NCBI GenBank assembly: GCA_013299115.1
Contig: JAAFKA010000014.1
Location: 64,001 to 128,000, forward strand
Direction of reading: 5' to 3'
Origin: Cytophagales bacterium
GTDB taxonomy: Bacteria; Bacteroidota; Bacteroidia; Cytophagales; Thermoflexibacteraceae
Length of the DNA: 64,000 nt
Part shown: piece after piece, positions 24,799 to 63,054 of the stretch
Layout of the letters: the number at the start of each line of letters is the position of its first letter
Numbering within the stretch: position 1 is the stretch's first letter
The notes under the pieces: generated by a model
Told to the model about the DNA's origin: nothing
Database searches by the model: none
The model's input: the letters and a program-made list of their open reading frames with translations, nothing else
Program-made: the position numbers and the translations under genes

Positions 24799-25228
24799 AA
24801 AAACAAAATTTCGGCAGTTTTTTGAACTATTGGCAGGGCTGAAAAAGCCATTGCCAAAGTTCAAAAAAGCCAATGCCGAGGTTGCAGTTTTGTAACCATC
24901 AGCAGTGGTAAAACTAACGTAGGGACGAAATAGTGCAAGCTATTTTGTTCCTACGTTAGTTTTACACCAGCCTACTTAGAGAGGTTTTGCTATAAATATT
25001 TCGTGCCTAAAGGCACTAAAAGATATGATTTATAGCTATAGTAAGTCTAATACTTATTTTGTAAAGCTATTTTTTTGCGTAAATCCTGACTCTATTATTG
25101 TTTAATCTTTAAACAAAAACAGAAAAAACACTTCAAAAATTGTTTAATAAAAAAATATTTTATAACTTGCCAAGTTGCTATTGCAAACAAGCTACCACAA
25201 ATATTTAACCCAACATTCGGCATTTTTT

Positions 25229-26602: not shown

Positions 26603-28176
26603 AGATACCAAAACATTGGCAATATATTTCTTTTACAGAAATCCTTGATATAATAGGAGGTTCTCAACCTGCTAAAGAGGAATTTATTGCCAATTTTCAG
26701 GAAGGATATATAAGGCTTTTGCAAATTCGTGATTTTGGAGATAAGCCTGTTCCTACTTTTGTAAGATTGACGAATAAACTCAGGTTTTGCGATAAAGACG
26801 ATATTCTTATTGCTCGTTATGGTGTTTCTATTGGACGAATTTTAACAGGTATGTCAGGAACTTACAATGTCGCAATAGTAAAAGTTATTATTCCAAAACC
26901 TTTGAATAAAAAATTTATATTTTATTTTCTTAAATCAAATGATTTTCAACAATATATAACTGCAAATGAAAGGGCTGCAATCAATGGTTTTAATAAAGAA
27001 GACTTAAATAATTTTCAAATTCCTATTGCACCATTAATAGAACAAACAGAAATCGTATCTATTTTAGATGAAATCTTTGAGAAATTTGAAACAGCAAAAA
27101 AATCTTTGGCAAAAATTCCTCGCCTATTGGCTCGTTACCGCCAATCTGTTTTAGAAAAAGCTATTTCTGGCGAATTAACTGAGGATTGGAGAGAGGAGAA
27201 TAATGTGGAGTTTGAGTGGGAGAATAAAAAATTAGGAGCTATAACTTCATTAATTACAAGTGGTTCAAGAGATTGGGCAAAATTTTATTCAAATAAAGGT
27301 GCTTTATTTATTCGCATTGGGAATTTGCAAAAGAACTCTATAAAAATAGATTTATCTCCTAATAATTTAAAATTTGTAAATCCTGATAGTGAGGAAGGAA
27401 AAAGAACATTATTAAAGCAAAATGATATTTTAATATCAATAACAGGTGATTTGGGGATTATTGGATTAGTTCAGCAGGATATTGGGGAAGCATATATCAA
27501 TCAACATATAGCATTGGTAAGAGTTAAGCCTAATGATTTCAATACTACTTATATAGCCTATTATCTTTTGACTGATTATGTTAAAATCCAAATCAACAGT
27601 TTAAAATCTGGTAATGTAAAGGCAGGTTTAACACTTAAAGATGTTTTTAATATATCAATAAATCTTCCTTCTCTACCAGAACAAACCGAAATCGTCAATC
27701 GGGTAGAAAAATTATTGAAAAAAGCAGATGAAGCCGAAGCAAAATATAACCAAGCAATGCAGATGATTGATAAATTGCAGGCATCGGTTTTGGCAAAGGC
27801 TTTTAGTGGCGAACTTTCTGAACCGCAACCAAATGACGAGTCTGTTGCTGTACTTTTAGAAAAAATAAAAACCGAAAAGGCACGTTTGGAACAGGAAAGG
27901 AAGGAATTGCAAAAGGCACAAACTACTATCAAGAAAACTATGGCACAACAGGAAAAAGTAGTAAAATCTGTTTTAGATTTTCTACGTGAATCTCCAACTA
28001 AAAGTATGACAGTAGAGGAAGCTTGGCAAGTTTCCGAATACAGAAAAAACAAAGAGGTTGAACTGTTTTTAGATGTGTTGGTTCTTTTAGAAAAAGAAGG
28101 CAAAATTAAAAGAGAGTTTGCTGATGAGGCAACAAAAATTGTTACCAAAATAACCCTAATTGAAAATGCAAATTAA
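26599..28176 (+). CDS. hsdS: Type I RM specificity subunit (two target-recognition domains plus coiled-coil spacers)
   Basis: 525 aa. ATGA start/stop overlap with hsdM. Duplicated TRD architecture with conserved central and C-terminal helical repeats (LPEQTEIV x2). Confidence 0.85.
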   Translation: MKIPKHWQYISFTEILDIIGGSQPAKEEFIANFQEGYIRLLQIRDFGDKPVPTFVRLTNKLRFCDKDDILIARYGVSIGRILTGMSGTYNVAIVKVIIPKPLNKKFIFYFLKSNDFQQYITANERAAINGFNKEDLNNFQIPIAPLIEQTEIVSILDEIFEKFETAKKSLAKIPRLLARYRQSVLEKAISGELTEDWREENNVEFEWENKKLGAITSLITSGSRDWAKFYSNKGALFIRIGNLQKNSIKIDLSPNNLKFVNPDSEEGKRTLLKQNDILISITGDLGIIGLVQQDIGEAYINQHIALVRVKPNDFNTTYIAYYLLTDYVKIQINSLKSGNVKAGLTLKDVFNISINLPSLPEQTEIVNRVEKLLKKADEAEAKYNQAMQMIDKLQASVLAKAFSGELSEPQPNDESVAVLLEKIKTEKARLEQERKELQKAQTTIKKTMAQQEKVVKSVLDFLRESPTKSMTVEEAWQVSEYRKNKEVELFLDVLVLLEKEGKIKREFADEATKIVTKITLIENAN

Positions 28177-29806
28177 ATCGGTATCTATCAAAGAATTTCG
28201 CAATCTGAAAGATTTTAAGATTGATTTTTCTCAATCTAAAACAGTTTTGATTGGACAAAATGCGTCAGGAAAATCTAATTTCTTGGAGGCTATTGTATTG
28301 ATTTTCAAGCAGCTTGATTTTTTTGATAACGAAATTAAAAAAGAACATTGGTTTGAATATGAAATTATTTATAAAATCCGAGAACATACAATTAAAATTT
28401 CAAGAAAATTAGAAAATGGAAAAGAAAAAAATGAATATAAATTTTGCAAAAGTAAAGATTTATTAGGAAACGATGTTTGGAAAGACATCCCAAAGTTCAA
28501 TGAAAAAAAAGATGAATATTTACCTAAATATGTTTTTGCCTATTATTCAGGCTTAGGTAATGGCAACCGTTTGGAGGAATATTTTGAAGAATATCAACGA
28601 AAATTTGCCGAAGATGCTATGAAAATAAAAGATGGTCGTGTGCCAAAACCACCAAGACTATTTTATGCTGAGTTAATACATAGCCAACTTTCTTTATTTT
28701 CATTTTTCATTGATAATCAGCCACTTATATTAAAATTGTTGAAAGACAACTTAAGCATTGAAGATTTGCAAACTGTGTTTTTAACCATTCAAGAACCAAA
28801 CTGGTCAACTCTAGAAAAAAAGAAAAAAGACCCTAAATTTTTTGGTAGTCAAGGGGTTGTAAAAGATTTGCTTGAATACCTGCATGATAATGTAGCTTTT
28901 GCACCTTTTAGAGATAAAATAGAAAATAAAAGCAGGCTTTGGGAGAAAAAAGGAAAGAAAACCTTAGATGTTGTCTATTTATATTTTAATGATTTCGAAA
29001 AAATTAGAAAGTTTATTCGTGATAAAACATGGACTTCTTTTGATTTTTTCCACATCTTAAATACTGCAAATGTTTCTAAACTCATTACCAAAGAAGGTAT
29101 TAAAATTCGTGTCAAGAAAAAGTATGCAGACCGTATTCTGTTTAAAGACCTTAGCGAAGGAGAGCAGCAATTATTGACTGTTTTGGGTTTAATGCGTTTT
29201 ACTTATACAGAGGAGGCTTTATTTCTACTTGACGAACCCGACACACATCTCAATGCTCTTTGGCAGTGGCAATACATGAAGTTTATTGAAATTGTATTGC
29301 AAGATAAAGACAAGGACAAAGATAAATCAAATGTGCAAGTTATTTTGGCTTCACACTCTCCGCTGACTATGGGTAGTTTGGAGAAAGAAAATGTAAGAAG
29401 GTTTATGCAGTTAAATGATAAACTTATAGCTGTTGAGCCAGATGTAAGCCCAAGAGGAATGGGTATCATAGGTATTCTGACCGAAATATTTGGTATTCCT
29501 ACTACTTTGGATATACCAACTCAACAAGATTTAGATGCCCGTAGAGAGTTGGAAAGTAGAGTATATTTTGGCGAAACACTTAATCAAGAGGATGAACAAA
29601 GCTTGCTAAAATTAAATTTAAAACTTGATAATTTAGGCTATCGTCTGATTTATCCTGACCCCTTGTATCAAAAATTTGAAATGACTTTTGCCAAAAGGAA
29701 AAAAGAAAAAGGCTTAGGGCTACCAAGCACACCAGAGGAAGTAGCAGAACTTAATAAACTCGCAGAAGATTTACTAAAAGAATTGTTTGATAACGAAAAT
29801 ATTTAA
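28160..29806 (+). CDS. AAA_15/AAA_21 (ABC/SMC-like) ATPase, Septu PtuA-like
   Basis: 548 aa. N-terminal Walker A LIGQNASGKSNFLEAI. C-terminal Walker B/D-loop FLLDEPDTHLN and ASHSPL. Overlaps the hsdS stop by 17 nt. Confidence 0.6.
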   Translation: MKMQIKSVSIKEFRNLKDFKIDFSQSKTVLIGQNASGKSNFLEAIVLIFKQLDFFDNEIKKEHWFEYEIIYKIREHTIKISRKLENGKEKNEYKFCKSKDLLGNDVWKDIPKFNEKKDEYLPKYVFAYYSGLGNGNRLEEYFEEYQRKFAEDAMKIKDGRVPKPPRLFYAELIHSQLSLFSFFIDNQPLILKLLKDNLSIEDLQTVFLTIQEPNWSTLEKKKKDPKFFGSQGVVKDLLEYLHDNVAFAPFRDKIENKSRLWEKKGKKTLDVVYLYFNDFEKIRKFIRDKTWTSFDFFHILNTANVSKLITKEGIKIRVKKKYADRILFKDLSEGEQQLLTVLGLMRFTYTEEALFLLDEPDTHLNALWQWQYMKFIEIVLQDKDKDKDKSNVQVILASHSPLTMGSLEKENVRRFMQLNDKLIAVEPDVSPRGMGIIGILTEIFGIPTTLDIPTQQDLDARRELESRVYFGETLNQEDEQSLLKLNLKLDNLGYRLIYPDPLYQKFEMTFAKRKKEKGLGLPSTPEEVAELNKLAEDLLKELFDNENI

Positions 29807-30734
29807 GCCTTTTCTGTCCATGAGATACATTGATATTTCAAAACTCACACTTCCTGCTGGTTGGTTGGTAACTGCCAATACTGCCTTAGCTACTTTGCTT
29901 ACAAAGAGCAAAAGAGAAAGAAATGACTTTATAAATTCTAAACAGTCCACTACTTGGAAAGACAAAAAATTGGTTAGTGCTTTAACCGAATTAGTTAATC
30001 CTGCAATGGAAAAATGTTGGTATTCTGAAACCAAAATTAGTGATGATTTAGATATAGACCATTTTCGCCCCAAAGGACACAATGAAAGACTATCATTTAG
30101 AACTCAATTTGAGGAGCATTTAGAAAAAAGACATTTTGAGGAGATTGATACAGAGGTTAATATGGGTTGGTGGTTTTTGGCTTTTGAACCTACTAATTTT
30201 AGAGTAGCTTCGCCCCACAGGAATCAATTACGCAGAAATAATACAAATGAAAGAGCAAAAGGAAAGTCTGATTTTTTTCCTTTGAAAAAAGGTAGCCCCG
30301 TTGCCACTAATCACTATGGGGTAGCAGACGAAATAAATTGCCTTTTAGACCCTTGTAATCCTCATGATGTAGAACTTTTAATTTTTGATAGCAATGGGGA
30401 CATTTTTAAAAATCATACAGATACATGGATAGAATGTAGAATTAATATTTCTATTGTGGTCTATCATTTAGACGAAGCAAAATTGAAAAATGGTCGCCAA
30501 CAAGTTTGGACAAATACAGAAAAATATATCATACAGCCATTAGTTGAGTTAGTAAAAGATACTTCTTTTTCTAATGAAAAGAAGTTACAAGAGGTTAATA
30601 AATTGCAAAATCATTTTTATACTGATTTTGCAGATACAAAAAGGGAGTTTTCTGCTGTTGCCATAGACTGTCTTCGCCATCATCAAAAAAAACATCCTTG
30701 GTTGGATAGATTTCTCCCCAACTTGACAAAATAA
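29787..30734 (+). CDS. HNH nuclease of the TIGR02646 / PtuB-like type
   Basis: 315 aa. CWYSETKISDDLDIDHFRPKGH resembles the retron/Septu-associated HNH family. Overlaps the ATPase stop. An alternative start is at 29820. Confidence 0.55.
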   Translation: MITKIFKPFLSMRYIDISKLTLPAGWLVTANTALATLLTKSKRERNDFINSKQSTTWKDKKLVSALTELVNPAMEKCWYSETKISDDLDIDHFRPKGHNERLSFRTQFEEHLEKRHFEEIDTEVNMGWWFLAFEPTNFRVASPHRNQLRRNNTNERAKGKSDFFPLKKGSPVATNHYGVADEINCLLDPCNPHDVELLIFDSNGDIFKNHTDTWIECRINISIVVYHLDEAKLKNGRQQVWTNTEKYIIQPLVELVKDTSFSNEKKLQEVNKLQNHFYTDFADTKREFSAVAIDCLRHHQKKHPWLDRFLPNLTK

Positions 30735-30790: not shown

Positions 30791-33700
30791 TTACTGCAAA
30801 TTAAATCTCAACTGAATCCCAAACGAAGTATTAGTCCGTCTGAAAGAATTGGAAACATAAGGGGCATTGATAGCGTGGTCGAAATAGAACTGCAAACTTG
30901 CCCGTTGGTTAATCACGTAGTTAATCGTCGGGCGAATTTGGAGGTTGTAGTTGCCTTGTGTTACCGTACTTTCTTGAATTTCCTCGCCGCTTGCCAACGT
31001 CTTAATGCTGCGTTGGGCAGTTTTGGTATCTCTGATGGTGAAGGCACAGGCAAAAGTCAAGTCGTTTTTCAGAGTTCGATAGTTGCCCCTAATTTTAAAC
31101 GGAATTTTGAAGTTTGATTTTACAAAACCAATATTCATCACAATTTCGTTGTTTCGCAATTCGGTAACTTGGGCATTCATCATGTTCATCGCAAGTCCAC
31201 GATTCATATTATACCGCACATCTATCGAGATATTTTTGGCTGTTTTTATCCGCACACCCACCAAAGGTGCAAAACCTTCGGTGATTGTAACTTGATTCAT
31301 CACAAAAACAGGAGTCAAACGGTTGGTATTGGCATCGAGTTTGGCGAGGGGCAAGTTCTGCAAATCTATGTTTAGTCGCAACAGCGAGGGGTCTGTAAAC
31401 GCCAACGAAGATTGGTAGCCTCCTGTGCTGTACTCCGAAGTATAGGCGTGTTCTATCTGAATAGAACGGAAATAAGGTTTCAAAAACGGCAAATTCGACA
31501 AGCCGTTGTAGGTCAATTTCCAGTTTGGCAACGGAATGGCGGGAAAAGCCGACAAACTTTGGTTGCTCACACTGCTGCCACTATACGCCGCCAAAAACGA
31601 AGGAATTAACACGTCTTGGGCATTTCTGTCGTAAGTGCCTTCGGTGTTTCGACTGTCCAAACTCTGTTTTACTGTTTGGCGGTTGCGAATAAACTCATCG
31701 AACAAGGGCGAATTGTTGGCTGCATTATCTCCTGTAAACATGGTGGCTAACGAAAAATAGGTAATAGCATATTGCCCACTTCGCTGCGGTGTTTGCGTTA
31801 CAAAAGCATCGGCAGTTCGGTTATAGGTAAACAATTCTTGGTAAGTTGCCATGTTGGTTCTTCGGGCATTGACCATGAGTTGCATATCTTTCACAGGCTC
31901 AATCACAGCTTCTATCCGCAAAGTTTGGTTAGTTCCTTGCCCAAACGTATTATTTTGCAAGGCACTTTTGCCCAACCATTCTCTTTTGGCTGCGGTTTCT
32001 TTTATGGTAGGGTCTTGGCTACCAAACACAAAGCCCCAACCAGGGGAGTTGAAAGCTGAACTCATACCAAAAGCCCCCGTAGGTGTGGTTAGCACCCCTG
32101 GCAAGGCTGTATTGTTGGTTTCGGTGTAAGAGAAGTTAATTTTTTGCACCATCATCATGCCTTTGAGCAAAGTACGCATAGGGCTGCTCACTGGTTTGGT
32201 AGAGTTTTGGTCAAGTCTTTCTTTGTCTGCCACTTCTGCCAATTTCTTTTCAATTTTCTCTAATCTTTTGTCAAATTTTTCGTTTTTCTTTGCAAATTTT
32301 TCACGCACTTTTTCAGACAACAGGCTGCTGTCGGCTTGGGCTTCTGCTTTCAGGCTGTCCATTTTGGCTGCCAATCTGTCTTTGCGTCCTTCTATTCGTT
32401 TTTTGCGAGCCTCCAAACGCAATTTTTTTCCTGCATATTTCGATGGCAAAGGTTCTTTTGCCTTGCGAGGGTCGGCAACAGCTGCCAAGACTCTACTTTT
32501 TTCGTAGAGTTTTTTCATGTCGAGTTGTCCGTTGATAGCCACGTTTTGGTTGTTCAGCATATTGTTGCCCAAACTATCTGCCAAACCTACTGCACCTGCC
32601 TGCCAAGTGTAACCTGCGGTGTATTTCACATCAGAGGCAACCCAATTTACAACAGGAAACTTGTCAAATGGCAATTTGTAGGTTACGCTGGTGGTCTGCA
32701 CAAAGTTTTTGATACGACCCAAATTGAGCAAATTGTTTAATACCGAGTCTCTTTTGGTTCTGTTGCTAAAACGGTTGGCTTGTGTGCCGTCTATTTCTCC
32801 TGCGGGTTCGTCTATAATTGCCTGTGCCTGTGCCGTATAGTCTAAACGCAAACTTTTGGTAATAGACCAAGCTAATTGGTAACTTCTATTAAAAGTAAAG
32901 GCTTTTTCGTACAGGGGCAATACGCCCAAGGTGCTTAATTGCCCATCTCTCAGTTGAGTTTTCACAAATCTCCTTTCAAAATCTCCGCGTACTGTTACAG
33001 TATTTGGCAAAGGTGCAAAGTTAAAATCTTTGATAAATTTCAAATATTTGCCTTCCAAATTTTGGTTTTTCTTAAAGGGTTCTATCGCAGGCACTTGACT
33101 ATTAAATTGGTATTGCAAACCCAGTCGGGTGTTTTCTTGCTTGTATTCGGCTGTCCGCACATTGCTACTTACCCTTTCCATATAAGCAAAATTCAATGCC
33201 CAATTTTCCACACTCCAAGGCTTAGGTTTCTTTTGCCCTACTGCATTTTTGCCCACATTCTGGAAGGCAATAGTACGCATATTCATATCTTCCCGCACCA
33301 AATCGAGGTATTCTTGCCTGTTGTCTTTTGCATCGAGGGCTTGCGTGAGGGGCATATCGGGGTCAAGGGGATTGAAGTACGGAGTCAAGAGTCGTCTTTC
33401 CATGCCCAAATACATAGGAAGTCGCCAGCCCCATTTGTTGAGTCCAAATTTTTCTAATTGGATTTGCATATTGAGGTCATATTCTAAGGTGTGGTTTCGA
33501 GTTCTTTGCGAAATTTTGTCTTGAATACCTCCAAAAAATGGCGAAACATAGCGGAAACTTGCGTTTATCCTTGCCAAATCTGCCAACTGCACCTGCAAAC
33601 TTGTACGGCTTGCCCAGCCTGCTTCGGTGTTAAATTCGGCTACACGCAATTCGTTTGCCCAGATACAAACAGATTTTGGTTGCAAGTCTGCTGATTCGGG

Positions 33701-36700
33701 GTTTCTCACGCCAATCATTGCCGTTTGCACACTACTCAAATCGGGATTGCCAATGACTGTAATTTTAAATCTGCCTACAATCTCCGAATAAGGCACACGA
33801 ACAGAAAGGCGTTGGTTGTTTCTCCTCGATTTTACATCTATTAAATCTGCCGTTGCCACGTCTATTTCGTTTTCTTGAGGCCACACCACGTTCACGTCTG
33901 TACTGCCAAAAGGTGTCATTTTCAAAGGTACTTCTATTTCATAGTAGTTTTCTTTAAAGTCTGTTCCCAAACGCAAAAATGCAACCATTTCGCCATCTTT
34001 GGCATCTCTACTTTCTGCGTGCAAAAACATTTTGACCCTTTTGTAATTGACCATATCTAAAATCAAATTTTTATAGACTGCCTTTGCATCTTTTTCGGGC
34101 AAGGCATCTACGCACATACGCAAAGACTGTTCATTCAACCTTGCTTGGGTGGCTGCACCTACCAAATTCAAATCACGAGTAAAACCCGGCGGCAACATAT
34201 AAGGTGTAATAGTTCCATCGGCTTTTGGTGTGCCGTTATTGACAATATTGATAGAAGAAACACGCAAATTATTGGTTGTGGCAGGTTCAGGAGGCAAGTT
34301 TAGCCCTGGTGTTTGCAAACTTTCGGTAAAAGGTCGCCAAGGTGTGCCTACAAATTGGAAACGAGCCATACGCAAGACTACGGGCTGTTGCCAATCTGTC
34401 ATATACATACGGATATAACGTATGGATTTGAAACCATCAATAGCACCAACTTTATTCGTAAAATCACGCACAGGAATACGGAACTGATACCATGTAACTC
34501 TGTCGGGATTGGTAGCCGTAGGGTCTGTTACCACCTTGTCCACCACATAAGGGCTGTTTTCTACTTGATTGGGGCGAAGGTCTATTTTGTATTCGTAATA
34601 GCCGTCGAGGTCATTCAAGGAATTATCACGATTAAGGTCTTCGTTGTCGGGCAAAGTAGAGTAAGAGGCAGTCCCTGCATTTTCAGGCGAATTGTTTTCC
34701 ATACCATTAAAAAATTTATAACGGTCGAGGATTTTATAGTCTAATTGGTCTGCTTTGTTGCCCAAATAATAGCTGAAATTGTCGTTAGAAGGGTCATTTT
34801 GTATCTCACGATAGACATCAGGCGTAACTCTGCCTTGCACTGCTTGCAAATAATCTGTAAATTTTTGTCTTTCTACTTCGTCATTGATACCGTCCATGCC
34901 CACGTCTTGCAATGCCCTGGTGCCTGTGCCACCCGAAAAAGCATTGGTTAAAAACTGCTGTTCGGTTACTCTGCCCCATGCCGTTTCTTTTATCCTGTCT
35001 AAATTGTTGGCTTCGGTAGGCAAACCATTTTCGAAACCATGACGACTATCAGGAATTACATCTTCCGATACATTGCCCAAGTTAAAATACAATTCGCCAC
35101 CTGTCGTGTTGTTTTCGGCTTGCACCTGTCCGTTTACCAATTTGGAAATTACCCTACCATTTGTACCTCTAATAAAAGGGTCGAGCAACCAAAATTCTAC
35201 GTATTGAATGTTGATGTTATCAAAATCTACATCAGAAGTAATGCCTTTGGTAATAGCCCCAAAATTGCTGCGAGGATTTGGCAACGTACCATCAGGATTG
35301 AGCAAAGGATTGTAATTGTATTGCCCTCTTTCGTTAGGGTAGTAGGCAATGTTCATTACCTGTTCGGGCAGGTTTATCTGCATGGCATCAGGTTTTACAA
35401 TTTCGTTGAACGGAATTAACCGAACATAGTGGTTTTCTTTGTCCTCTGGCGTAATATTGGGCGGCGGACTTCCACCTGAAACAGTCTGGAAAAAAGAAGT
35501 AAAATCTATGGTGTACCAAGAAGTTTTGGCACGTCTGTAACCATATTCCAAAGGTCTGTTCGGATTAAAGATGGGTCTGAATTGGTTGGGCGTAGAGCCT
35601 AAAATCCACGTGGTGGGTTGCCTTCCTAAGTCATAAGGAATTTCGGCAGCCTCGAAATCGTCTATGAACGAAGTACCGCCATCTTTGCCTATGAGTTGGT
35701 TGGTGCTGGGCAGCAAGGCAGCCACCTCCGAAGAAAAGGTATAACTCGACTTTTCTTTGGTGCTGTATAAGGGCAATTTGTCCACCAAACGAGTGAGCAA
35801 ACGAGCATCATCTTTGCGGTGCTGCACCCCCAAACCGACCAAACTATTGCGTGTAGGCTCACTACCAATGTTCACCCTTGTTATCAAAGGTCTTTCGTTG
35901 AGGTGCATAGCCGTTGCGGTAAATCTTGTATTTTTCGACAAGAAATATTGGGCATCTAAACCAAAGAAATTGCGAGTTTGGAAACTAAACAAGTCGGCTC
36001 TTTCGTATTGTATCCTTATTTCTTTGCCCGAAGCCAACAACTCAGGTCTTAGGATATTGACAACTCCCGATTGGTAATCTGCACTAAAATCTGTACCTTC
36101 TCTCAACAACGTGCCACCTGCCGTTATCTGAATAGAACGAGGGGCAATGTTAATTCCTGGTAGGCGAATAGACGTGCCACTGGTGGAGGCTTGGAAACTT
36201 CCTTTGATAAAAAATTTGCTTTTACTTGTCAAAAGTTGTGCGTCCATTTGCGTTTTGCGATACAACTCATTGAACACATATTTTTGGCGAAATTGCAATT
36301 CTTCTTCGGGCAAAAACTTTTCGTCTAAGGTACGCCCAAAAGGTTCGAGAACAGGGAAAATGATACGCCCAAATTCGGGATATATGGTTACGGGTGCAGC
36401 CACGCCTGATGTACCCGCCAAGTTGCTTTGGTTAGCCGCCGCACCTGTGTTGCCTACCTGCGTAGTGGGGAAAGGATTGGTATTTGCCCCGCCTGTGGTG
36501 CTGGGTATGTTGTTGAAACTCGAAGGCGTAAAACTATTGGCTACACTTTGCGAACTTACCCCTGCAATAAAGTCAAAATTGCCATCGGGCTGCGGGTCGT
36601 TGTTTTGGTTGAGCCTGTCCACACCAAAAACTTGCACCAACGGCACATTTTTGAGGTTTCTGCCCTCTTGCAAGTTCGGATTGTCTATGCCTGTGAGGTC

Positions 36701-38452
36701 ATCACGATAAATAATGCGTAATTGGAAATTATCTCTACTAACTTGATTGGTATTTAAGCTATAAATATTTTTCATCATCAAATCCCAAGTCGGCAAATCT
36801 AAACGAATGGTCGAGGGTTTGAGCATTTTCATCATAATCACGTCAGTAGCACCCAAACTTTGGTATTTTTCGGTCAATTCGCCTACCGTATAGCGTTGTC
36901 CTTTGTAGGTATATTCGTAAGAAACCGCCACAATTTCGTCATTGCGGACAGGAGTTTGCAAACTGATATAGCCCAGCGTAGGGTGAAACGTAAATTCATT
37001 GGGTGCTAAACGGCGTGCTGCCCGCAATACTTCGTAATCTGTACCTTTTTCGAGGGTAAATTGTCCGTTTAAGATATTGCTAATGTCGTCTATTCCTCTG
37101 ATGCCTGTGGTCTGGTCTAATCTTTTATAAAGCAAATTGGCATCATTGGAAGCAGCCTCAAAAGTGGGGTTGCCCTGCCCTATGTTGGGGTTGTTGCGGT
37201 TAAAAGGTTTGTGATTGCCCAAATCTAAGAAAGCAGCCACATTTCGCAAACTTTGCGTATTGGCAACTCTGTTGGTAACATACACCTCCACCCGCGTAAC
37301 CTGTACGCCACTTGTAATCATAGGAATAGTCCGCAAAGAAGCCTCGTAGTTATTGCGGAAAAAATCGGCAAGGAAAAAGTGTCTGTTAAAATCGTATTGG
37401 TCTGCACGCAACTCAAATTCACGTTGTTGTCCGCCGCCACGCAATACCATGACCTCCTGCGTACCTCTTTGGTTGGCAGCAGCCATATTCACTATCAATT
37501 TGCCAAATTGCAACTTGGTTTGAATACCCAACAAATTTTGGGCACCTGTTATCAAACTATTGCTGGATTGCATATTGACGTTGCCCACGTTTAGCTCTTT
37601 TATAATGCCTGCTTCGCCACTGGTAAGGTCTGGCACGCCACTATTCAACCCTGGTACGGTGGGCAAACTGTAACTAATCCGAAAGACGTTATCGAATTGG
37701 AAAGTGCTGCGGGTGTCCCAGTTGATGTTTACACGCAACCTTTCGCCAATAGACCCCGCCAAACTCAACCGAATTTGTTGGTCGAAAAACAAACCGCCAT
37801 TGGTCTGTTGCTGCACAGGAATTTGCGGATTTTCTATGCTCTGCCACCTTCCTCCAACGTCTAACAACACCTGCCCCATGGGTTTGATGTCTATGTTGTC
37901 GCCACCAAACAATTTAGCTGCCAAAGGTGGCAATTTGTAGATAGGGACTAACCTGTTTTTGTCTTTTCCACTCAAATTGGTAGCCCCTGTAATCACATCT
38001 TTGTTTGCCCAATAACGGCGGCGTGCCGAATCGTATTTATAGCGTTGGTACTCTTGAAAAGACAGAGAACTTGGTGTTTTGTAGGGCAAAGTAGCAATTT
38101 TTTCGTTTACTTGGTAGCCTTTGCCTGTGGAGTCTAAGGTTACAGTTGTTTTTTGGGAAGGAAACGGCAAATTGAGCAAAGGCGACGACCTGCGGCGGGC
38201 AGGTGTACTAAAACCCGAATACGGAGAACCTTGTCTATCTTGCTGATAAACAGGCAACTGATTAGAAGTAGGAGGATTTTGGGGAAGGGGCAAGATAGGT
38301 GGGGGCGGAGAATCAAGAGCCACCATAGCCAGCCTTCGGTTAATTCTCTCTGGTTCAAAAGGTTTTTTTTCTACCCATTTTGCATAAGAAATACCATACA
38401 CACACACGCCACAGCAGGCAAAGAGGGCAAACCACAATTTTTTATTGAGCAT
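30791..38452 (-). CDS. sprA: T9SS outer-membrane translocon / gliding motility protein SprA (Sov)
   Basis: 2553 aa with a signal peptide. Size, composition and the N-terminal region are typical of Bacteroidota SprA. Confidence 0.85.
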   Translation of the reverse strand: MLNKKLWFALFACCGVCVYGISYAKWVEKKPFEPERINRRLAMVALDSPPPPILPLPQNPPTSNQLPVYQQDRQGSPYSGFSTPARRRSSPLLNLPFPSQKTTVTLDSTGKGYQVNEKIATLPYKTPSSLSFQEYQRYKYDSARRRYWANKDVITGATNLSGKDKNRLVPIYKLPPLAAKLFGGDNIDIKPMGQVLLDVGGRWQSIENPQIPVQQQTNGGLFFDQQIRLSLAGSIGERLRVNINWDTRSTFQFDNVFRISYSLPTVPGLNSGVPDLTSGEAGIIKELNVGNVNMQSSNSLITGAQNLLGIQTKLQFGKLIVNMAAANQRGTQEVMVLRGGGQQREFELRADQYDFNRHFFLADFFRNNYEASLRTIPMITSGVQVTRVEVYVTNRVANTQSLRNVAAFLDLGNHKPFNRNNPNIGQGNPTFEAASNDANLLYKRLDQTTGIRGIDDISNILNGQFTLEKGTDYEVLRAARRLAPNEFTFHPTLGYISLQTPVRNDEIVAVSYEYTYKGQRYTVGELTEKYQSLGATDVIMMKMLKPSTIRLDLPTWDLMMKNIYSLNTNQVSRDNFQLRIIYRDDLTGIDNPNLQEGRNLKNVPLVQVFGVDRLNQNNDPQPDGNFDFIAGVSSQSVANSFTPSSFNNIPSTTGGANTNPFPTTQVGNTGAAANQSNLAGTSGVAAPVTIYPEFGRIIFPVLEPFGRTLDEKFLPEEELQFRQKYVFNELYRKTQMDAQLLTSKSKFFIKGSFQASTSGTSIRLPGINIAPRSIQITAGGTLLREGTDFSADYQSGVVNILRPELLASGKEIRIQYERADLFSFQTRNFFGLDAQYFLSKNTRFTATAMHLNERPLITRVNIGSEPTRNSLVGLGVQHRKDDARLLTRLVDKLPLYSTKEKSSYTFSSEVAALLPSTNQLIGKDGGTSFIDDFEAAEIPYDLGRQPTTWILGSTPNQFRPIFNPNRPLEYGYRRAKTSWYTIDFTSFFQTVSGGSPPPNITPEDKENHYVRLIPFNEIVKPDAMQINLPEQVMNIAYYPNERGQYNYNPLLNPDGTLPNPRSNFGAITKGITSDVDFDNINIQYVEFWLLDPFIRGTNGRVISKLVNGQVQAENNTTGGELYFNLGNVSEDVIPDSRHGFENGLPTEANNLDRIKETAWGRVTEQQFLTNAFSGGTGTRALQDVGMDGINDEVERQKFTDYLQAVQGRVTPDVYREIQNDPSNDNFSYYLGNKADQLDYKILDRYKFFNGMENNSPENAGTASYSTLPDNEDLNRDNSLNDLDGYYEYKIDLRPNQVENSPYVVDKVVTDPTATNPDRVTWYQFRIPVRDFTNKVGAIDGFKSIRYIRMYMTDWQQPVVLRMARFQFVGTPWRPFTESLQTPGLNLPPEPATTNNLRVSSINIVNNGTPKADGTITPYMLPPGFTRDLNLVGAATQARLNEQSLRMCVDALPEKDAKAVYKNLILDMVNYKRVKMFLHAESRDAKDGEMVAFLRLGTDFKENYYEIEVPLKMTPFGSTDVNVVWPQENEIDVATADLIDVKSRRNNQRLSVRVPYSEIVGRFKITVIGNPDLSSVQTAMIGVRNPESADLQPKSVCIWANELRVAEFNTEAGWASRTSLQVQLADLARINASFRYVSPFFGGIQDKISQRTRNHTLEYDLNMQIQLEKFGLNKWGWRLPMYLGMERRLLTPYFNPLDPDMPLTQALDAKDNRQEYLDLVREDMNMRTIAFQNVGKNAVGQKKPKPWSVENWALNFAYMERVSSNVRTAEYKQENTRLGLQYQFNSQVPAIEPFKKNQNLEGKYLKFIKDFNFAPLPNTVTVRGDFERRFVKTQLRDGQLSTLGVLPLYEKAFTFNRSYQLAWSITKSLRLDYTAQAQAIIDEPAGEIDGTQANRFSNRTKRDSVLNNLLNLGRIKNFVQTTSVTYKLPFDKFPVVNWVASDVKYTAGYTWQAGAVGLADSLGNNMLNNQNVAINGQLDMKKLYEKSRVLAAVADPRKAKEPLPSKYAGKKLRLEARKKRIEGRKDRLAAKMDSLKAEAQADSSLLSEKVREKFAKKNEKFDKRLEKIEKKLAEVADKERLDQNSTKPVSSPMRTLLKGMMMVQKINFSYTETNNTALPGVLTTPTGAFGMSSAFNSPGWGFVFGSQDPTIKETAAKREWLGKSALQNNTFGQGTNQTLRIEAVIEPVKDMQLMVNARRTNMATYQELFTYNRTADAFVTQTPQRSGQYAITYFSLATMFTGDNAANNSPLFDEFIRNRQTVKQSLDSRNTEGTYDRNAQDVLIPSFLAAYSGSSVSNQSLSAFPAIPLPNWKLTYNGLSNLPFLKPYFRSIQIEHAYTSEYSTGGYQSSLAFTDPSLLRLNIDLQNLPLAKLDANTNRLTPVFVMNQVTITEGFAPLVGVRIKTAKNISIDVRYNMNRGLAMNMMNAQVTELRNNEIVMNIGFVKSNFKIPFKIRGNYRTLKNDLTFACAFTIRDTKTAQRSIKTLASGEEIQESTVTQGNYNLQIRPTINYVINQRASLQFYFDHAINAPYVSNSFRRTNTSFGIQLRFNLQ

Positions 38453-57304: not shown

Positions 57305-57943
57305 ATGACACAAACCTTCAAAGAGGAAATAGCCAATGCAGTTACACATGGCATTCCTGCTCTGCTAAGTATCTGGGGAACTATTCTATTGGTGCAATAT
57401 GCCCAATTTCTTGGAAACACAAAACTTTTAATAGGTTTCCTAATTTATGGGGTTGGCATTTTTTTCTTGTTTACTGCTTCCACTTTGTATCATAGTGTGC
57501 AGGAAATAAACCTCAAAACCAAACTACGTGTATTCGACCATATTGGGATTTACCTCATGATAGCTGGCACTTATACGCCTTTGACTTTGGTTACTATTCA
57601 GAATATTTGGGGGACTGTATTATTAGTTGCTGTTTGGAGTATTGCTATTTTTGGCGTTGTCTTCAAGATATTTTTTACAGGCAAATATCCAAAACTTTCC
57701 TTAGCAAGTTATTTGGCTATGGGCTGGTTGGTGGTGTTAGGAGCAAAGCCCATGTTTGAGTTTGTAGAAACTAACGGTTTGTGGTTAATTTTGGCAGGAG
57801 GTATCAGTTTTACTATAGGCACTATCTTTTATAGGTGGCACAAACTGCCCTACCAGCACGCCATTTGGCACGTATTTGTGTTTATTGGTGGACTTTTTCA
57901 TTATTTTGCCATTCTGTATTATACCGTACCAATGAAAAAATAA
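57305..57943 (+). CDS. Hemolysin III / PAQR family membrane protein
   Basis: 212 aa with 7 TM helices. EEIANAVTHG and HYFAILYY are HlyIII signatures. Confidence 0.8.
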   Translation: MTQTFKEEIANAVTHGIPALLSIWGTILLVQYAQFLGNTKLLIGFLIYGVGIFFLFTASTLYHSVQEINLKTKLRVFDHIGIYLMIAGTYTPLTLVTIQNIWGTVLLVAVWSIAIFGVVFKIFFTGKYPKLSLASYLAMGWLVVLGAKPMFEFVETNGLWLILAGGISFTIGTIFYRWHKLPYQHAIWHVFVFIGGLFHYFAILYYTVPMKK

Positions 57944-58086: not shown

Positions 58087-61000
58087 ATGCCCGATATTTT
58101 TATTTCTTACGGAAGAAAAGAGAGCAAAACCTTTGCCACCCGTCTGCACGACAGGCTGCTGGCAATGGGTTATGATGTATGGTTCGACCAAAACGACATT
58201 CCCTTAGCCGTAGATTTTCAGGAACAGATAGACGAGGGCATCCGCACCACGCCCAATTTTGTTTATATCATTTCGCCACACGCCATTATTTCGCCTTATT
58301 GTGCCAAAGAGTTGCAACTTGCCTACAAATATAGCAAAAGGATTATTCCTGTGATGCACGTGGACTCGGAGTACGACAGAATACCTGTGGTTATTCAAAA
58401 ACTGAATTGGATTTTGGCAAGGGAAAAAGCCGATTTTGCCCTACCACAAGCCGAATGGGAGGCAATAGACGACTTCGAAAAAGCCTTGCTGGGCTTGGTG
58501 GCTACGGTGGAAAGCCAAAAAGAATATGTTACCAAGCATACAGTTTTGTTGCAAAAAGCCTTAGAATGGGAGAAAAATAGAAAGCAAACAGCCTATTTGT
58601 TGGTGGGCGAAGAACGAAAAGATGCCGAAAAGTGGCTACTCACCAAAGATTTTTTCGATTATGTGCAAGACGATTTAGACAAGACCAAAACCAAAGAAGT
58701 GCGGGTTTTGCCACCTTGTCGTCCTTCGGATTTGCACGCTGAATTTGTGTGCGAAAGTCGCAAAAATGCCGAAAATTTGCTTTGCGATGTCTTTATTTCT
58801 CATGCTCAAACCGAAAAAGAATTACGCAATCAGATTGTGCGAACTTTGTCGCAATACAACATTACTTGTTGGAGTCCGCAAACCGACATCAAAACAGGGC
58901 AAGATTGGGACAAAAGTGTGGAGGAAAGCATAGAGCAAGCCGACAATTTTGTGTTTTTTATTACGCCTTACACTGTCAAAAACCAATTCTTTTTGCGGTG
59001 TTTGGCTCACGCCACTTTTTACCAAAAAAGAGTTATTCCTTTGTTGGTTTTGCCCACGCCTTTTGCCGATTTTCCAACAGAAATTAGCAAATTGACCTAC
59101 ATAGACATCACAGACAACCAAAGTACAGACGACTTGCGTGATGATTTGGATAGTTTATTGACCGAAGTAAACAAAGATTCTGTTTATTATTACCAACACA
59201 AGGTTTTGTTGGTGCAAGCCCTGAAATGGAAACGCCAAAACCAAAACCCAAGTATTTTGTTGCGAGGCTATAACTTGCAAACTGCCGAAGATTGGTTGAA
59301 ATTGGGCAACAAAAGAAACCAACACCGCCCACATGGTTTGCACGAGGAATATATCAATGAAAGCATAGCCAAAAGAGGGCAATTAGCCACCGAAGTTTTT
59401 ATTTCTTACTCACGCAACGATGGCGACCTTGCCCGCAAACTGAACAATGAATTGCAACTTTACGGCAAAACCACGTGGTTTGACCAAGAAAGTATAGTAG
59501 AAGGTGTAGATTTTGGCGATGAAATACGCAAAGGCATAGACAGTGCCGACAATTTTTTGTTTATCATTTCGCCCAAATCCATTGCCTCGCCTTATTGTGA
59601 TACGGAGGTGAGTCATGCAGTCAGGTCGGGCAAACGAATTATTACCGTATTGGCAGAGCCTTTGCCTGTTGCGGTGGCAGACGATTCTAACAAATTTCCT
59701 ATTTTGCACCCCGCTTTGGCAAGGGTGCAGTGGATTGACTTCAAAAAAAGTTTTTCTACGGGCATGGGGCAGCTGCTCCGCACCTTAGAAACCGACAGAG
59801 AATATGTGCAGCAGCATACCAAATGGGGCAAATCTGCAAACGAATGGTATGAAAAAGAAAAAAGTGCAGACTTGCTTTTGCGGGGCAACGAATATGCCTT
59901 AGCCGAAGCTTGGTTGAGCAAGGTGGCAGAGGCAGAGGAAAAAGGGCAAAAAAAACAACCTCACGTTACAGATTTACAGAAAGAGTACATAGCCGAAAGT
60001 CGCAAATTGATAGCAGCCGAAAGATTGGCAAAATTGCAAACCATTACCCGTTTGCGGTTCTTGTTAGGTATGGCAGCTTTGGGTTTATTGGTGGCGGTGG
60101 CAAGCACCATTTATGCTTTCAGGCAACGAAACGAAGCCCACAACAAAGCCGTTATTGCCGAAATCAATCAATTAGTTTCGTTGGCAAGACAAGTGCAAAA
60201 CGACAATCCTGCCTTAGCCTTGCGAATAGCCGAAAGAGCCTATAAAAAAGACTCTACGGCAAGTGTGCGGGGTGTGATACGTGATATTTTGAGTGATAAC
60301 ATTTTTTACCTCAACCTCGAAGGGCATGAAGGCAGTATTTTAAGCATTGCAGGTTCTCCCGATAGCAAACTCATAGCCACAGGTGGGCAAGACAATACGT
60401 TGCGACTTTGGAATCAATACGGCAAGGCTTTGCACACCCTCCAACTACACGAAAAACCTGTTACCAGCATAGAATTTGCCCACAATGGCAACTTTTTAGT
60501 TAGTGGTAGCGAAGATGGAACAGTGAAGTTTTGGGATACCGATGGCGTATTGTTTGGCAATATAGATTTGGGAGATGAGCAAAGAATATCCAATATCGAT
60601 GTTTCGCCCAACGATACGCAAATTTTGATTTGCACGCCTTTTGTGCAGGTGCAACCAGATACCATTAGGCTTTATAGTAGCAAAGGAGAATTGGTAAAAA
60701 ACATTGGCGGACACATCGGCGGCACGTGGAAAGCTATTTTTTCGCCTTCGGGCAAATATATTTTGACTTGTGGCTTGGCAGACAGCACCGCAAAGTTGCT
60801 CGACCACGAAGGCAATTTGTTGCGAACTATCAAAGGACACACAGGCATTGTGTTGGATATTGCTTTTTCGCCTGATGAAAATTATTTGGTTACAGCAGGG
60901 CAAGATTTTTTTGCAAAAGTATGGGACAGACGAAGTGGCAAAGAAATAAGCACCTTGCGAGGACACGCAGGCACTATTTTTTCGGTGGCTTTCTCTCCCG

Positions 61001-63054
61001 ATAACAAAAACATAGCCACGGCAAGTGCAGACAAAACTGCAAAAATCTGGAACTTAAAGGGAGAAGTCATCGAATCTTTTATGATTCACTCCAAAGTTGT
61101 TACTAGCCTTACTTTCTCCGCAAACGGCTACTACCTCTTTACAGCCAGCGAAGACGGCAAAGCTGCTTTGATAGATTTGAGAGGAAATGGCAAACAAACT
61201 TTCAAAGAAAATGGCGTAAACATAGAAGGAGCTTTGTTTTACCCAACGGCAAACGAAAGCTCTACCAAAGATTCTATTGGAAATTCTACTAAAAATATTG
61301 CCAATCAATCTACTTTTTTGGTTTCTTATTCGCCACTTTCAGGCTTGCATTGGTGGGATTCTACGGGCAAAGTTCACCAAAATCTCAATAACTTCGAAAC
61401 AGTTTCTTTGCTCAAATTGTCGCCTGATAAAAAAATGTTGCTCCTTTCCGATTTGCACAACCTTATCAAAATCACCGATTTGGAGGGGAAAATTATACAA
61501 AATTTGGAAATACCAGCCCAAGAAGCAAGTGCTATTAGTTCGGTAGTTTTTTCGCCTGATAGCAAATACGTGGCGGCGGCTAACTCCGAAAAAACCATAA
61601 GAATTTGGCAAACCAACGGCAAAGGGCTAAAATTCATACGTTTACAGGAAGACGATATGCTTTCTTGCATAGAATTTATGCCCGATGGCAAACATTTATT
61701 GATTGGAGGCTTAGACAATGTAATTCGGCTGATAGACCTCGATGGCAAGATAATTAAGCAATGGAAAGGACACGACGAAAGAATTTTATCTTTGGCAGTT
61801 TCGCCCAATGGTCGTTATTTTTTGAGTGGCAGCAGAGATGCTACGGTCAGGTTGTGGGCAGTCAATGGCGGTTTGGTCGAGTTGCTCAAAGGACACAGCA
61901 GCCCCATTACTTCGGTTGCTTTTTCCTCAAACGGCAAAAAAATATTGACAGCCTCAACGGACAACACCGCCCGAATTTGGGAGTTCAACGGACAGCAAAC
62001 TCAAGTTTTTAAGCATGATGACGTGGTAAATTCGGCTGTTTTTTCTCCCGATGACAAAACTGTTTTGACAGTGGCAAACAACGAGGCAAAACTTTGGTAT
62101 GCAGATTGGCGTGAGTTTTTGTCTGCCGACAGGGTAGCCAATTTTTCTTTGGCAGAATTAGCAAAAGCTGGGGTAGTGGTTGATTTTGAGGAGTTTAACG
62201 ACCAAGAAAATGCAAAAGATTTGGTGGACGCAGCCGAATATTACACAGGAGATTATGAAAGTAACGAAAAATTAGACGAAAAAATAAAGTCTAAACACGC
62301 CAAAACTTTGTTTCAAGAAGGATTGCGAATTTTGCTCGACACTGCCCAAACTAAAATAGAAGACCAAAATACGCAACTATTGAGCAGAGCCAAAATAGGT
62401 TTTGCAGAAGCCCAAGCCAAATTGGGTGAGCCTGTAAGTATGCAGCACTTCTTGAAGGCAAAAAATGCCGAAGAGGTTACGGCTTACATCAACTTTTTTG
62501 CCGTAAAACTCGAAAAAGCTACTTCCAAGCAAGACTCCGCCTTGCAAACCAACAACTTGAATGCAATGTATGAGGTGCTAATTAAAAAAACTGAAACCTC
62601 CGAAGACCTTTACAAATTTGCCCAGCAGTTTGAAAGACAGAGTGATGATGCCAACAACGCCGAAGCAGTGATGCGAAACGGAGAAATTGCGATTAAACTC
62701 TACGAAAAACTGTATGAAATGGACAAAGACGACAACACCCGACTCTCCGTAGCCAAACTCTGTACTTCGGTGGCGGGCTACAAACTCTTAGACAAAAACT
62801 TTATAGCAGCCCAGCAGTTTGCAGAAAGGGCTTTGACTTACGACAAAAGCAGGTTATTGGCTTACACTTATTTGGCTACTTCGTCCCTGTATTTGGGTCA
62901 ATTTGCAAGGGCAAAACAAATTTATTTGCAATACAAAGATACAACTTACAACGGTGCCTTGCTCAAAGAGGTTTTTCTAAACAGCATAGAGGCAATGACT
63001 GCCAAAGGTGTGGTTTTTTCAGATATAGAAAAGGCAAGGGAGTTGTTGAGGTAA
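58087..63054 (+). CDS. Multidomain protein: three tandem TIR domains, one TM helix, WD40 beta-propeller region (about 14 blades), C-terminal helical/TPR-like domain
   Basis: 1655 aa. TIR1 (DIFISYGRKES...SPYCAKEL). TIR2 (DVFISHAQTEKE...TPYTVKNQ). TIR3 (EVFISYSRNDGD...SPYCDTEV). TM LRFLLGMAALGLLVAVASTIYAF at about 60049-60120. Repeated GH/WD-like blades (LRLWN, VKFWD, AKVWD, AKIWN, IRIWQ, VRLWA, ARIWE). Confidence 0.8.
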   Translation: MPDIFISYGRKESKTFATRLHDRLLAMGYDVWFDQNDIPLAVDFQEQIDEGIRTTPNFVYIISPHAIISPYCAKELQLAYKYSKRIIPVMHVDSEYDRIPVVIQKLNWILAREKADFALPQAEWEAIDDFEKALLGLVATVESQKEYVTKHTVLLQKALEWEKNRKQTAYLLVGEERKDAEKWLLTKDFFDYVQDDLDKTKTKEVRVLPPCRPSDLHAEFVCESRKNAENLLCDVFISHAQTEKELRNQIVRTLSQYNITCWSPQTDIKTGQDWDKSVEESIEQADNFVFFITPYTVKNQFFLRCLAHATFYQKRVIPLLVLPTPFADFPTEISKLTYIDITDNQSTDDLRDDLDSLLTEVNKDSVYYYQHKVLLVQALKWKRQNQNPSILLRGYNLQTAEDWLKLGNKRNQHRPHGLHEEYINESIAKRGQLATEVFISYSRNDGDLARKLNNELQLYGKTTWFDQESIVEGVDFGDEIRKGIDSADNFLFIISPKSIASPYCDTEVSHAVRSGKRIITVLAEPLPVAVADDSNKFPILHPALARVQWIDFKKSFSTGMGQLLRTLETDREYVQQHTKWGKSANEWYEKEKSADLLLRGNEYALAEAWLSKVAEAEEKGQKKQPHVTDLQKEYIAESRKLIAAERLAKLQTITRLRFLLGMAALGLLVAVASTIYAFRQRNEAHNKAVIAEINQLVSLARQVQNDNPALALRIAERAYKKDSTASVRGVIRDILSDNIFYLNLEGHEGSILSIAGSPDSKLIATGGQDNTLRLWNQYGKALHTLQLHEKPVTSIEFAHNGNFLVSGSEDGTVKFWDTDGVLFGNIDLGDEQRISNIDVSPNDTQILICTPFVQVQPDTIRLYSSKGELVKNIGGHIGGTWKAIFSPSGKYILTCGLADSTAKLLDHEGNLLRTIKGHTGIVLDIAFSPDENYLVTAGQDFFAKVWDRRSGKEISTLRGHAGTIFSVAFSPDNKNIATASADKTAKIWNLKGEVIESFMIHSKVVTSLTFSANGYYLFTASEDGKAALIDLRGNGKQTFKENGVNIEGALFYPTANESSTKDSIGNSTKNIANQSTFLVSYSPLSGLHWWDSTGKVHQNLNNFETVSLLKLSPDKKMLLLSDLHNLIKITDLEGKIIQNLEIPAQEASAISSVVFSPDSKYVAAANSEKTIRIWQTNGKGLKFIRLQEDDMLSCIEFMPDGKHLLIGGLDNVIRLIDLDGKIIKQWKGHDERILSLAVSPNGRYFLSGSRDATVRLWAVNGGLVELLKGHSSPITSVAFSSNGKKILTASTDNTARIWEFNGQQTQVFKHDDVVNSAVFSPDDKTVLTVANNEAKLWYADWREFLSADRVANFSLAELAKAGVVVDFEEFNDQENAKDLVDAAEYYTGDYESNEKLDEKIKSKHAKTLFQEGLRILLDTAQTKIEDQNTQLLSRAKIGFAEAQAKLGEPVSMQHFLKAKNAEEVTAYINFFAVKLEKATSKQDSALQTNNLNAMYEVLIKKTETSEDLYKFAQQFERQSDDANNAEAVMRNGEIAIKLYEKLYEMDKDDNTRLSVAKLCTSVAGYKLLDKNFIAAQQFAERALTYDKSRLLAYTYLATSSLYLGQFARAKQIYLQYKDTTYNGALLKEVFLNSIEAMTAKGVVFSDIEKARELLR

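Follow-up and report, generated by a model that had tools for sequence, protein, structure and literature searches.

A triple-TIR, WD40-repeat gene of a Cytophagales bacterium and its family of predicted membrane proteins: a candidate stand-alone transmembrane sensor-effector

What could a bacterium do with a protein that carries three TIR domains before a predicted membrane helix and a long series of WD40 repeats behind it? This question is raised by an open reading frame (ORF) at 58087..63054 on the forward strand of the window, the 64,000-nucleotide stretch of Cytophagales bacterium DNA that was analyzed here (GenBank assembly GCA_013299115.1, contig JAAFKA010000014.1, positions 64,001 to 128,000). 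The ORF is a real, uncharacterized bacterial membrane protein gene and an ordinary member of a large unnamed family of tri-TIR membrane proteins. It may encode a stand-alone transmembrane sensor-effector, in which an outer sensor of WD40 repeats and a TPR-fold domain would activate a cytoplasmic array of TIR domains that cleave nicotinamide adenine dinucleotide (NAD+). The chances of this reading are put at about even.

The ORF encodes 1655 amino acids and starts at the first start codon past a stop. Its product shares the N-terminal start MPDIFISYGR with its orthologues. A gene fusion or frameshift artefact was ruled out by collinear full-length orthologues with 55-78% identity. The domain order is three TIR_2 domains, each with a helical linker, one hydrophobic helix, WD40 blades, and a C-terminal TPR-fold domain (Table 1). 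Pfam TIR_2 (PF13676) was matched at residues 4-114, 235-349, and 437-564 with 84.9, 66.9, and 91.7 bits, where the gathering cut-off is 28 bits. An AlphaFold2 model of residues 1-740, built with 71 aligned sequences (mean predicted local distance difference test score 87.3, predicted template modeling score 0.74), holds TIR folds and helical linkers only. It contains three TIR folds, a small helical linker behind each, and then an unbroken helix at residues 629-704 that includes the hydrophobic segment. Helices at 708-721 and 725-737 follow within the conserved juxtamembrane segment. Foldseek matched the TIR domains to the TIR structures of SARM1, SPARTA TIR-APAZ, AbTir, and Toll-like receptors with a probability of 1.00. 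The original prediction had named a merely flavodoxin-like fold of the repeats as the result that would overturn it, and by both Pfam and Foldseek the repeats are genuine TIR domains.

The linkers behind the three TIR domains are mutually paralogous (BLASTP E 1e-7 to 9e-10). Linker 1 carries the recurring motif Y..H..L...A..W......LL.G, and no Pfam family was found for it in a scan of that segment. In a Kyte-Doolittle scan only one strong stretch appeared, at residues 658-676 with a score of 2.1, and the next best scored 1.08. The match to Pfam WD40 (PF00400) has an E value of 1.7e-98 over the whole protein. A repeat-profile search identified 13 blades within residues 746-1345. If the degenerate stretch at 1041-1103 is counted as a possible fourteenth blade, the region makes up two seven-bladed propellers. 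The C-terminal domain has a TPR fold and was classed as a TPR-like solenoid, a type defined by helix-turn-helix repeats in a TPR superhelix. No NTPase family was detected in Pfam scans of the whole protein and of its segments. The parts that had been proposed from the sequence, namely three tandem TIR domains, a single transmembrane helix, a WD40 region with a C-terminal helical domain, and no NTPase or STAND module, are thus all present as described. One further match was found in the WD40 region. The NCBIfam model of the Por_Secre_tail sorting domain of the type IX secretion system (T9SS; TIGR04183) scored 29.2 bits against a cut-off of 23 at window positions 60604-60771 (residues 840-895, WD40 blade 3). 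This match was judged spurious, as it is internal and not C-terminal, and it probably reflects chance similarity of β-strands.

Which of the TIR domains could be enzymes can be considered from their catalytic residues. A TIR was taken as catalytic in type where a conserved Glu stands in the αC helix motif W/Y-x-x-x-E. TIR1 has E75 (codon 58309-58311) in SPYCAKEL and TIR3 has E507 in SPYCDTEV, and both sites share the motif SPYCxxE(L/V). Each of these residues is invariant in 71 of 71 aligned relatives. E75 falls on the motif Glu (KEL/KEI) of 3h16 (PdTIR) and 8qlo (SPARTA TIR-APAZ) in the alignment, and the sequence matches of TIR3 in the PDB are the TIRs of SARM1 and SPARTA. TIR1 and TIR3 would thus be NADase-type TIRs by their catalytic Glu. 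In TIR2, the corresponding column 305 holds Glu in 64 of the 71 relatives; Cys is found only in a clade of six proteins (P0001-P0006) that includes the window gene. The same six proteins are those that bear the full C-terminal TPR-fold domain. TIR2, with Cys305, is retained although it is predicted to have no catalytic activity. Within this clade conservation is highest in TIR2 (72-90% identity) and next highest in the juxtamembrane helix (71-92%), and it is lowest in the propellers and the TPR part (44-78%). Because TIR2 is the best-conserved domain despite the lost Glu, a structural or regulatory role is argued for it and not decay. The overall pattern is that of a conserved signaling module with a faster-evolving sensor.

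These parts can be put together in a proposed mechanism. The two WD40 propellers and the TPR-fold domain would form a ligand-binding sensor beyond the membrane, and a ligand in the periplasm or envelope would bind or cluster it. The change would then be passed on through the unbroken helix at residues 629-704 and the conserved segment next to the membrane. The TIR arrays would be rearranged, or paired with those of a neighboring molecule, into an active assembly, in which TIR2 would probably serve as a structural or activating component of the array. NAD+ would then be hydrolyzed, leading either to depletion, with growth arrest or cell death, or to an ADP-ribose-derived signal. Depletion seems a more likely output than production of a messenger, because no effector gene is linked. 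Cleavage of NAD+ by the array, its activation by clustering, the kind of ligand, and any part in defence or conflict are inferred only.

The family to which the protein belongs gives further indications. A search with the full-length protein returned 1414 matches at E<=1e-10, and the best 120 of these were mapped with local profiles. In these 120, the unit of TIR plus linker is present in 3, 5, 6, 7, or 9 copies. The majority come from cyanobacteria and are about 1350 residues long, with TIR domains that start near residues 4, 234, and 436. One unit of TIR, linker, and helix (residues 433-740, without WD40) was also searched against 1.84 billion cluster representatives. This gave 702 proteins at E<=1e-30, and the number rose to 6104 at E<=1e-10. 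Among 141 new representatives, exactly three TIRs were found in 121 and a hydrophobic helix directly behind the last linker in 131. The order TIR1-TIR2-TIR3 is kept in 178 of 261 relatives. Each TIR has its own signature across phyla, with 44-50% identity over residues 1-740 to cyanobacterial members, and the three TIRs are thus, judging from these signatures, not interchangeable copies. Longer arrays consist of duplicated unit pairs, either 1-2-1-2-3 (14 proteins) or 1-(2-3)n, for example 1232323 and 123232323 (P0020, P0019, P0007, and others). The number of TIRs in a complete array tends to be odd (3, 5, 7, 9), and a TIR3-type unit always stands last before the membrane helix.

As far as their sources are named, the relatives come mostly from filamentous cyanobacteria (Coleofasciculus, Symploca, Microcoleus, Moorea, Leptolyngbya), from Beggiatoa-like gammaproteobacteria, and from Flexithrix/Flammeovirgaceae/Cytophagales, and several genomes hold more than one paralogue. 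The window protein has all of the features of this unnamed family, which can be written as [TIR+linker]n, transmembrane helix, variable sensor. In databases, the annotation of its members goes no further than 'TIR domain-containing protein' or 'WD40 repeat protein'. No description of a tri-TIR family was found in the full-text literature available, whose coverage leaves out subscription journals. The architecture is not the unusual one that it had been taken for: it is shared by a large family in which TIR1, TIR2, and TIR3 stand in fixed order. Nor does it show the wide conserved distribution of a housekeeping gene in non-defence contexts, which had been named as another result that would overturn the original prediction. 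The spread is wide but patchy, with paralogues, no synteny, and a variable sensor.

On which side of the membrane the sensor lies can be approached through the same relatives. The hydrophobic helix is found in the same slot after the last linker in 105 of 120 and 131 of 141 relatives in the two sets, and it is kept in hydrophobicity and not in sequence across the family. Its uncharged span has a median of 23 residues (interquartile range 21-25) in 238 members. Charge bias was measured in the same members on 15-residue flanks at either side of the helix. The mean number of Lys and Arg residues is 5.3 on the TIR side vs 3.0 on the other side, and the TIR-side flank has more of them in 210 members, an equal number in 20, and fewer in 8. 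In addition, 38 relatives have no WD40 repeats, and the slot behind the helix holds dCache_1 (7), CHASE2 (6), Cache_3-Cache_2 (1), or FGE-sulfatase (6) domains in these; WG repeats, TPR, and pentapeptide repeats are its other contents. Cache and CHASE2 are standard extracytoplasmic sensors of bacterial transmembrane receptors. Relatives of the Cache type have one further transmembrane helix about 350 residues on, and those of the CHASE2 type have a cluster of two or three. For example, P0025 is laid out as transmembrane helix, dCache, transmembrane helix, and basic tail. These counts match topologies with the sensor outside.

Because of the conserved helix slot, the family-wide charge bias, and the Cache and CHASE2 domains behind the helix, it is strongly inferred that the TIRs are cytoplasmic and the WD40/TPR part is outside, in a single-pass inner-membrane protein of N-in/C-out orientation. 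The original prediction had proposed this topology from the window protein, and it now has comparative support both from the positive-inside bias of the family and from the dCache_1, CHASE2, and Cache_3-Cache_2 domains that replace WD40 with fitting numbers of transmembrane helices.

Two further observations concern the part behind the helix. In P0157, P0179, and P0200, 7-11 further hydrophobic segments lie about 400 residues past the first helix, as a polytopic module fused to the tri-TIR part. The cyanobacterial members end in a two-cysteine motif, AC.WV.DYLK.N.....SD..LCD.I, and the window protein has the TPR-fold domain in place of this motif. A disulfide between the two cysteines of the motif in the cyanobacterial members would fit an exported location.

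The genomic surroundings were compared across six loci of orthologues and family members. No synteny and no recurrent neighbor were found across these loci. The window gene and its relatives are consistently stand-alone, and the earlier statement that no partner gene lies nearby holds for all six contexts. Defence-type genes (GmrSD with a methylase, a caspase, a KAP NTPase, a small TIR, a patatin) lie within 10 kb at some loci. These cases are anecdotal, and the few loci concerned are too small a sample to compare with chance. In Flexithrix dorotheae (locus L008, 4911-5720), a separate 269-residue TIR_2 protein is encoded directly upstream of a tri-TIR/WD40 paralogue (P0070). Some 6 kb on the other side of P0070, downstream, there is a patatin-like gene. 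This pairing with a separate TIR_2 gene is absent from the other five loci.

Several points weigh against a transmembrane sensor-effector. The transmembrane helix is predicted from hydropathy, and the charge bias in the window protein itself is weak, with 4 vs 3 Lys and Arg residues. WD40 repeats of its type are classically cytoplasmic, the FGE-sulfatase, TPR, and pentapeptide domains found behind the helix in relatives indicate no compartment, and the export of about 980 residues behind a cytoplasmic domain of 650 residues would be demanding. The catalytic Glu in TIR1 and TIR3 is alone no proof of NADase activity. The flanks of the window gene are housekeeping genes and no defence island, and all matches to defence models are confined to the TIR part, those of NCBIfam being below their cut-offs.

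In a first alternative, the protein would be an environmental or cell-cell receptor with no role in phage defence or cell death, and the TIR array would make an NAD-derived messenger or tune NAD+ in filamentous or gliding bacteria. The family would then stand beside histidine kinases, chemoreceptors, cyclases, and Ser/Thr kinases as a further class of transmembrane signal transducers in bacteria. The slot behind the helix does hold dCache_1, CHASE2, and Cache_3-Cache_2, the sensors of ordinary receptors. The genomic contexts are of a housekeeping kind, with no demonstrated association with defence islands, and the N-terminal module is strongly conserved across phyla at the level of identity given above. 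However, no candidate receptor or effector for a messenger is linked in any of the six loci, and the closest structural matches of the TIRs are enzymes that deplete NAD+. Several paralogues per genome together with variable sensors are more typical of conflict systems, and defence-type genes are present within 10 kb at some loci. This alternative is considered unlikely, though it is the best placed of the three.

A second alternative concerns the compartment. The sensor could be tethered to the membrane but wholly cytoplasmic, with a cytoplasmic trigger, if the helix were only an anchor or oligomerization element or were inserted without export of the C-terminal part. Sensing would then resemble that of NTPase-containing TIR-NLR-like proteins, with the NTPase left out. 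WD40 repeats like those of the window protein are usual in cytoplasmic STAND proteins, and the small charge bias in this protein would be compatible with such an arrangement, as would the pentapeptide, TPR, and FGE-sulfatase domains that some relatives have behind the helix. The helix itself speaks against it, as it is a conserved uncharged span of 21-25 residues with basic flanks, and one spanning helix puts the two halves on opposite sides. Export is also argued for by the Cache and CHASE2 domains that follow the helix in relatives, since the number of extra transmembrane helices is the one that export needs, and a cytoplasmic sensor is rated as quite improbable. Least likely of all, and rated very low, is that the TIRs are non-enzymatic scaffolds as in Toll-like receptors and MyD88, which would recruit unlinked TIR or other adaptors after clustering: the highly conserved TIR2 without catalytic Glu in the six-member clade and the separate small TIR_2 protein directly upstream of the Flexithrix relative would suit it, but the invariance of E75 and E507 in 71 diverse relatives is hard to explain without catalysis and no conserved adaptor gene is linked.

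A transmembrane sensor-effector with an outer sensor thus stays the preferred reading of the window gene. A wider proposal can be made for the family as a whole, although only tentatively, and its chances are put clearly below even. It would be a large undescribed class of bacterial transmembrane receptors for the recognition of patterns or signals, in which one helix connects exchangeable outer sensors (WD40, Cache, CHASE2, FGE-sulfatase-like, WG) with an ordered hetero-array of TIRs that is assembled beforehand. Such receptors would recognize a signal or an attack while it is still at the envelope, ahead of any entry into the cytoplasm, and answer it by cleavage of NAD+. They would be a prokaryotic functional counterpart of Toll-like receptors, and TIR would join the known outputs of bacterial transmembrane signaling.

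To our knowledge, the characterized bacterial TIR systems (Thoeris, CBASS/Pycsar effectors, SPARTA, and TIR-NLR-like proteins) sense their trigger inside the cell. If the preferred reading is true, bacteria can couple recognition at the level of the envelope directly to NAD+ chemistry. The gene would then also offer a simple one-gene model for switching on TIR assemblies across a membrane. A further question is why the array consists of three different TIRs in a set order, one of which can lose its catalytic residue and still be under strong selection. A large family concentrated in filamentous and gliding bacteria bears on the idea of an expanded death and conflict machinery in multicellular-type prokaryotes. 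The verdict is that the family is a transmembrane version of the TIR-based sensor-effectors, large and undescribed, and that it merits experimental attention.

Table 1. Coordinates of the parts of the ORF at 58087..63054, of the restriction-modification locus in the window, and of defence-type genes near family members at other loci (numbered within those loci).
Feature	Location	Strand	Residues and remarks
TIR1	58087..58506	+	1-140; Pfam TIR_2 E 8e-24; fold confirmed in the model and by Foldseek
Linker 1	58507..58782	+	141-232; helices and β-hairpin; paralogous to linkers 2 and 3
TIR2	58783..59172	+	233-362; Pfam TIR_2 E 3e-18; Cys305 codon 58999-59001
Linker 2	59173..59382	+	363-432; three helices (model); paralogous to the other linkers
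TIR3	59383..59790	+	433-568; Pfam TIR_2 E 6e-26; E507 codon 59605-59607
Linker 3	59791..60057	+	569-657; last helix continuous with the membrane helix (model helix 629-704)
Predicted transmembrane helix	60058..60120	+	658-678; FLLGMAALGLLVAVASTIYAF; basic flank RLR before it
Juxtamembrane helical segment, conserved	60121..60321	+	679-745; between the membrane helix and propeller 1
WD40 propeller 1 (putative)	60322..61206	+	746-1040; seven blades
WD40 propeller 2 (putative)	61207..62121	+	1041-1345; six clear blades and one degenerate with an insertion at 1041-1103
C-terminal TPR-fold helical domain and stop codon	62122..63054	+	1346-1655
HsdM-type N6_Mtase gene	25175-26602	+	type I restriction-modification
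HsdS-type Methylase_S gene	26599-28176	+	type I restriction-modification
Further ORF of the restriction-modification locus	28160-29806	+	
Further ORF of the restriction-modification locus	29787-30734	+	
Defence-type neighbor, locus L002	23122-24977		DNA methylase and GmrSD_N
Defence-type neighbor, locus L005	1-1354		Peptidase_C14
Defence-type neighbor, locus L006	13652-15565		KAP NTPase

The neighbors of the gene in the window are an HlyIII-family gene upstream (57305..57943) and a DNA polymerase III delta'-type (holB-type) gene downstream, which runs past the window end. Further upstream are ORFs that, from their translations, are presumably aminotransferase-like, porin-like, recX-like, and nuoL-like. 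A type I restriction-modification locus (25175-30734, forward strand) lies about 28 kb from the gene and is not adjacent to it. Because the guanine-plus-cytosine content of this segment is markedly low, 0.32 vs about 0.39-0.43 around it, a horizontally acquired island is suggested. The window also encodes SprA, a 2553-residue protein of the T9SS and gliding machinery (30791-38452, reverse strand), and a 1290-residue protein (18070-21942, forward strand) in which six DUF285 repeats are combined with a Por_Secre_tail sorting domain. These two proteins mark a T9SS-bearing, gliding Bacteroidota genome. Among named genomes the closest relative, at 69% identity, is a Cytophagales metagenome-assembled genome. 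Scans for sigma-70 promoters and terminators gave counts at chance level, with promoter models that do not cover Bacteroidota.

How the protein compares with known systems can be taken first for those that act inside the cell. With Thoeris ThsB it shares the TIR domain and a weak profile similarity (PADLOC ThsB models, NCBIfam ThcB4), but it is multidomain and membrane-bound. Membership in Thoeris was rejected, as ThcB4 scored 76.7 bits against a cut-off of 220 bits and no ThsA-like gene is present in the six loci. The single TIRs match SARM1 and SPARTA TIR-APAZ best, both in sequence and in structure. The catalytic Glu motif is common to all of them, and the output is likely to be consumption of NAD+. 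The TIR NADases SARM1, AbTir, and SPARTA are activated by TIR-TIR assembly. The window protein differs from SARM1 and SPARTA in having no ARM or SAM domains, no APAZ, and no Argonaute partner. Membership in SPARTA was rejected, since the PADLOC TIR-APAZ match covers only profile positions 5-173 of 430, the TIR part, and no Ago gene is nearby. A PADLOC match named 'Aga_TIR-PNTD1-PNTD2' was likewise set aside as mere TIR similarity to SPARTA TIR-APAZ, according to the PDB matches, and a literature search for 'PNTD1' gave nothing relevant. For a CBASS or Pycsar effector, the PADLOC SAVED-TIR match covers only residues 430-513, Pfam scans detected no SAVED, STING, or cyclic nucleotide-binding domain, and there is no cyclase neighbor; this assignment was rejected too.

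With the cytoplasmic TIR-NTPase-repeat proteins of bacteria, plants, and fungi (TIR-NB-ARC/NACHT-WD40/TPR; Avs/bNACHT-like) it shares an N-terminal TIR effector and a C-terminal WD40 or TPR sensor within one stand-alone polypeptide, often with several paralogues per genome. The window protein has a membrane helix where the P-loop NTPase would be, its TIR is triplicated, and its sensor is predicted to be extracytoplasmic. It was rejected as a STAND or NLR-like TIR protein (Avs, bNACHT, TIR-NB-ARC-WD40), with no NTPase in the Pfam scans and none in the model of residues 1-740.

In the literature found, the nearest organization is the analogous one of EACC2-caspase proteins. These combine a constant N-terminal effector with a highly variable C terminus that may be either extracellular, with transmembrane helices (CHASE2), or intracellular, and they occur in multicellular-type bacteria (PMC8195603; Kaur et al., 2021). 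Their effector is a caspase and their constant module is another one, and the tri-TIR family is not described in that paper.

In its proposed working the protein is most like a Toll-like receptor turned around or, equivalently, a bacterial receptor of the Cache/CHASE2 type with TIR as its output where others have a kinase or cyclase. Transmembrane receptors of bacteria with Cache or CHASE2 domains have a cytoplasmic output, one transmembrane helix, and an exchangeable outer sensor, and the same dCache_1 and CHASE2 domains are found in the present family. Their difference lies in the output, as a TIR array is absent among the outputs listed in the portion of the literature found. Bacterial receptor kinases with an extracytoplasmic β-propeller have a comparable layout.

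Animal Toll-like receptors, finally, invite comparison. The window protein was rejected as a member, since it has no leucine-rich repeats and its TIRs are N-terminal, and it is regarded as an analogue; nothing indicates that the two architectures as wholes have a common origin. It is reversed in orientation (type II, with N-terminal TIRs), it has WD40 and TPR repeats where Toll-like receptors have leucine-rich repeats, and it has three differentiated TIRs vs one, with an NADase-type Glu vs scaffold TIRs. What the two would have in common, with the predicted topology, is a repeat-built outer sensor, a single membrane helix, and cytoplasmic TIR, with activation that presumably occurs by ligand-induced association of TIRs.

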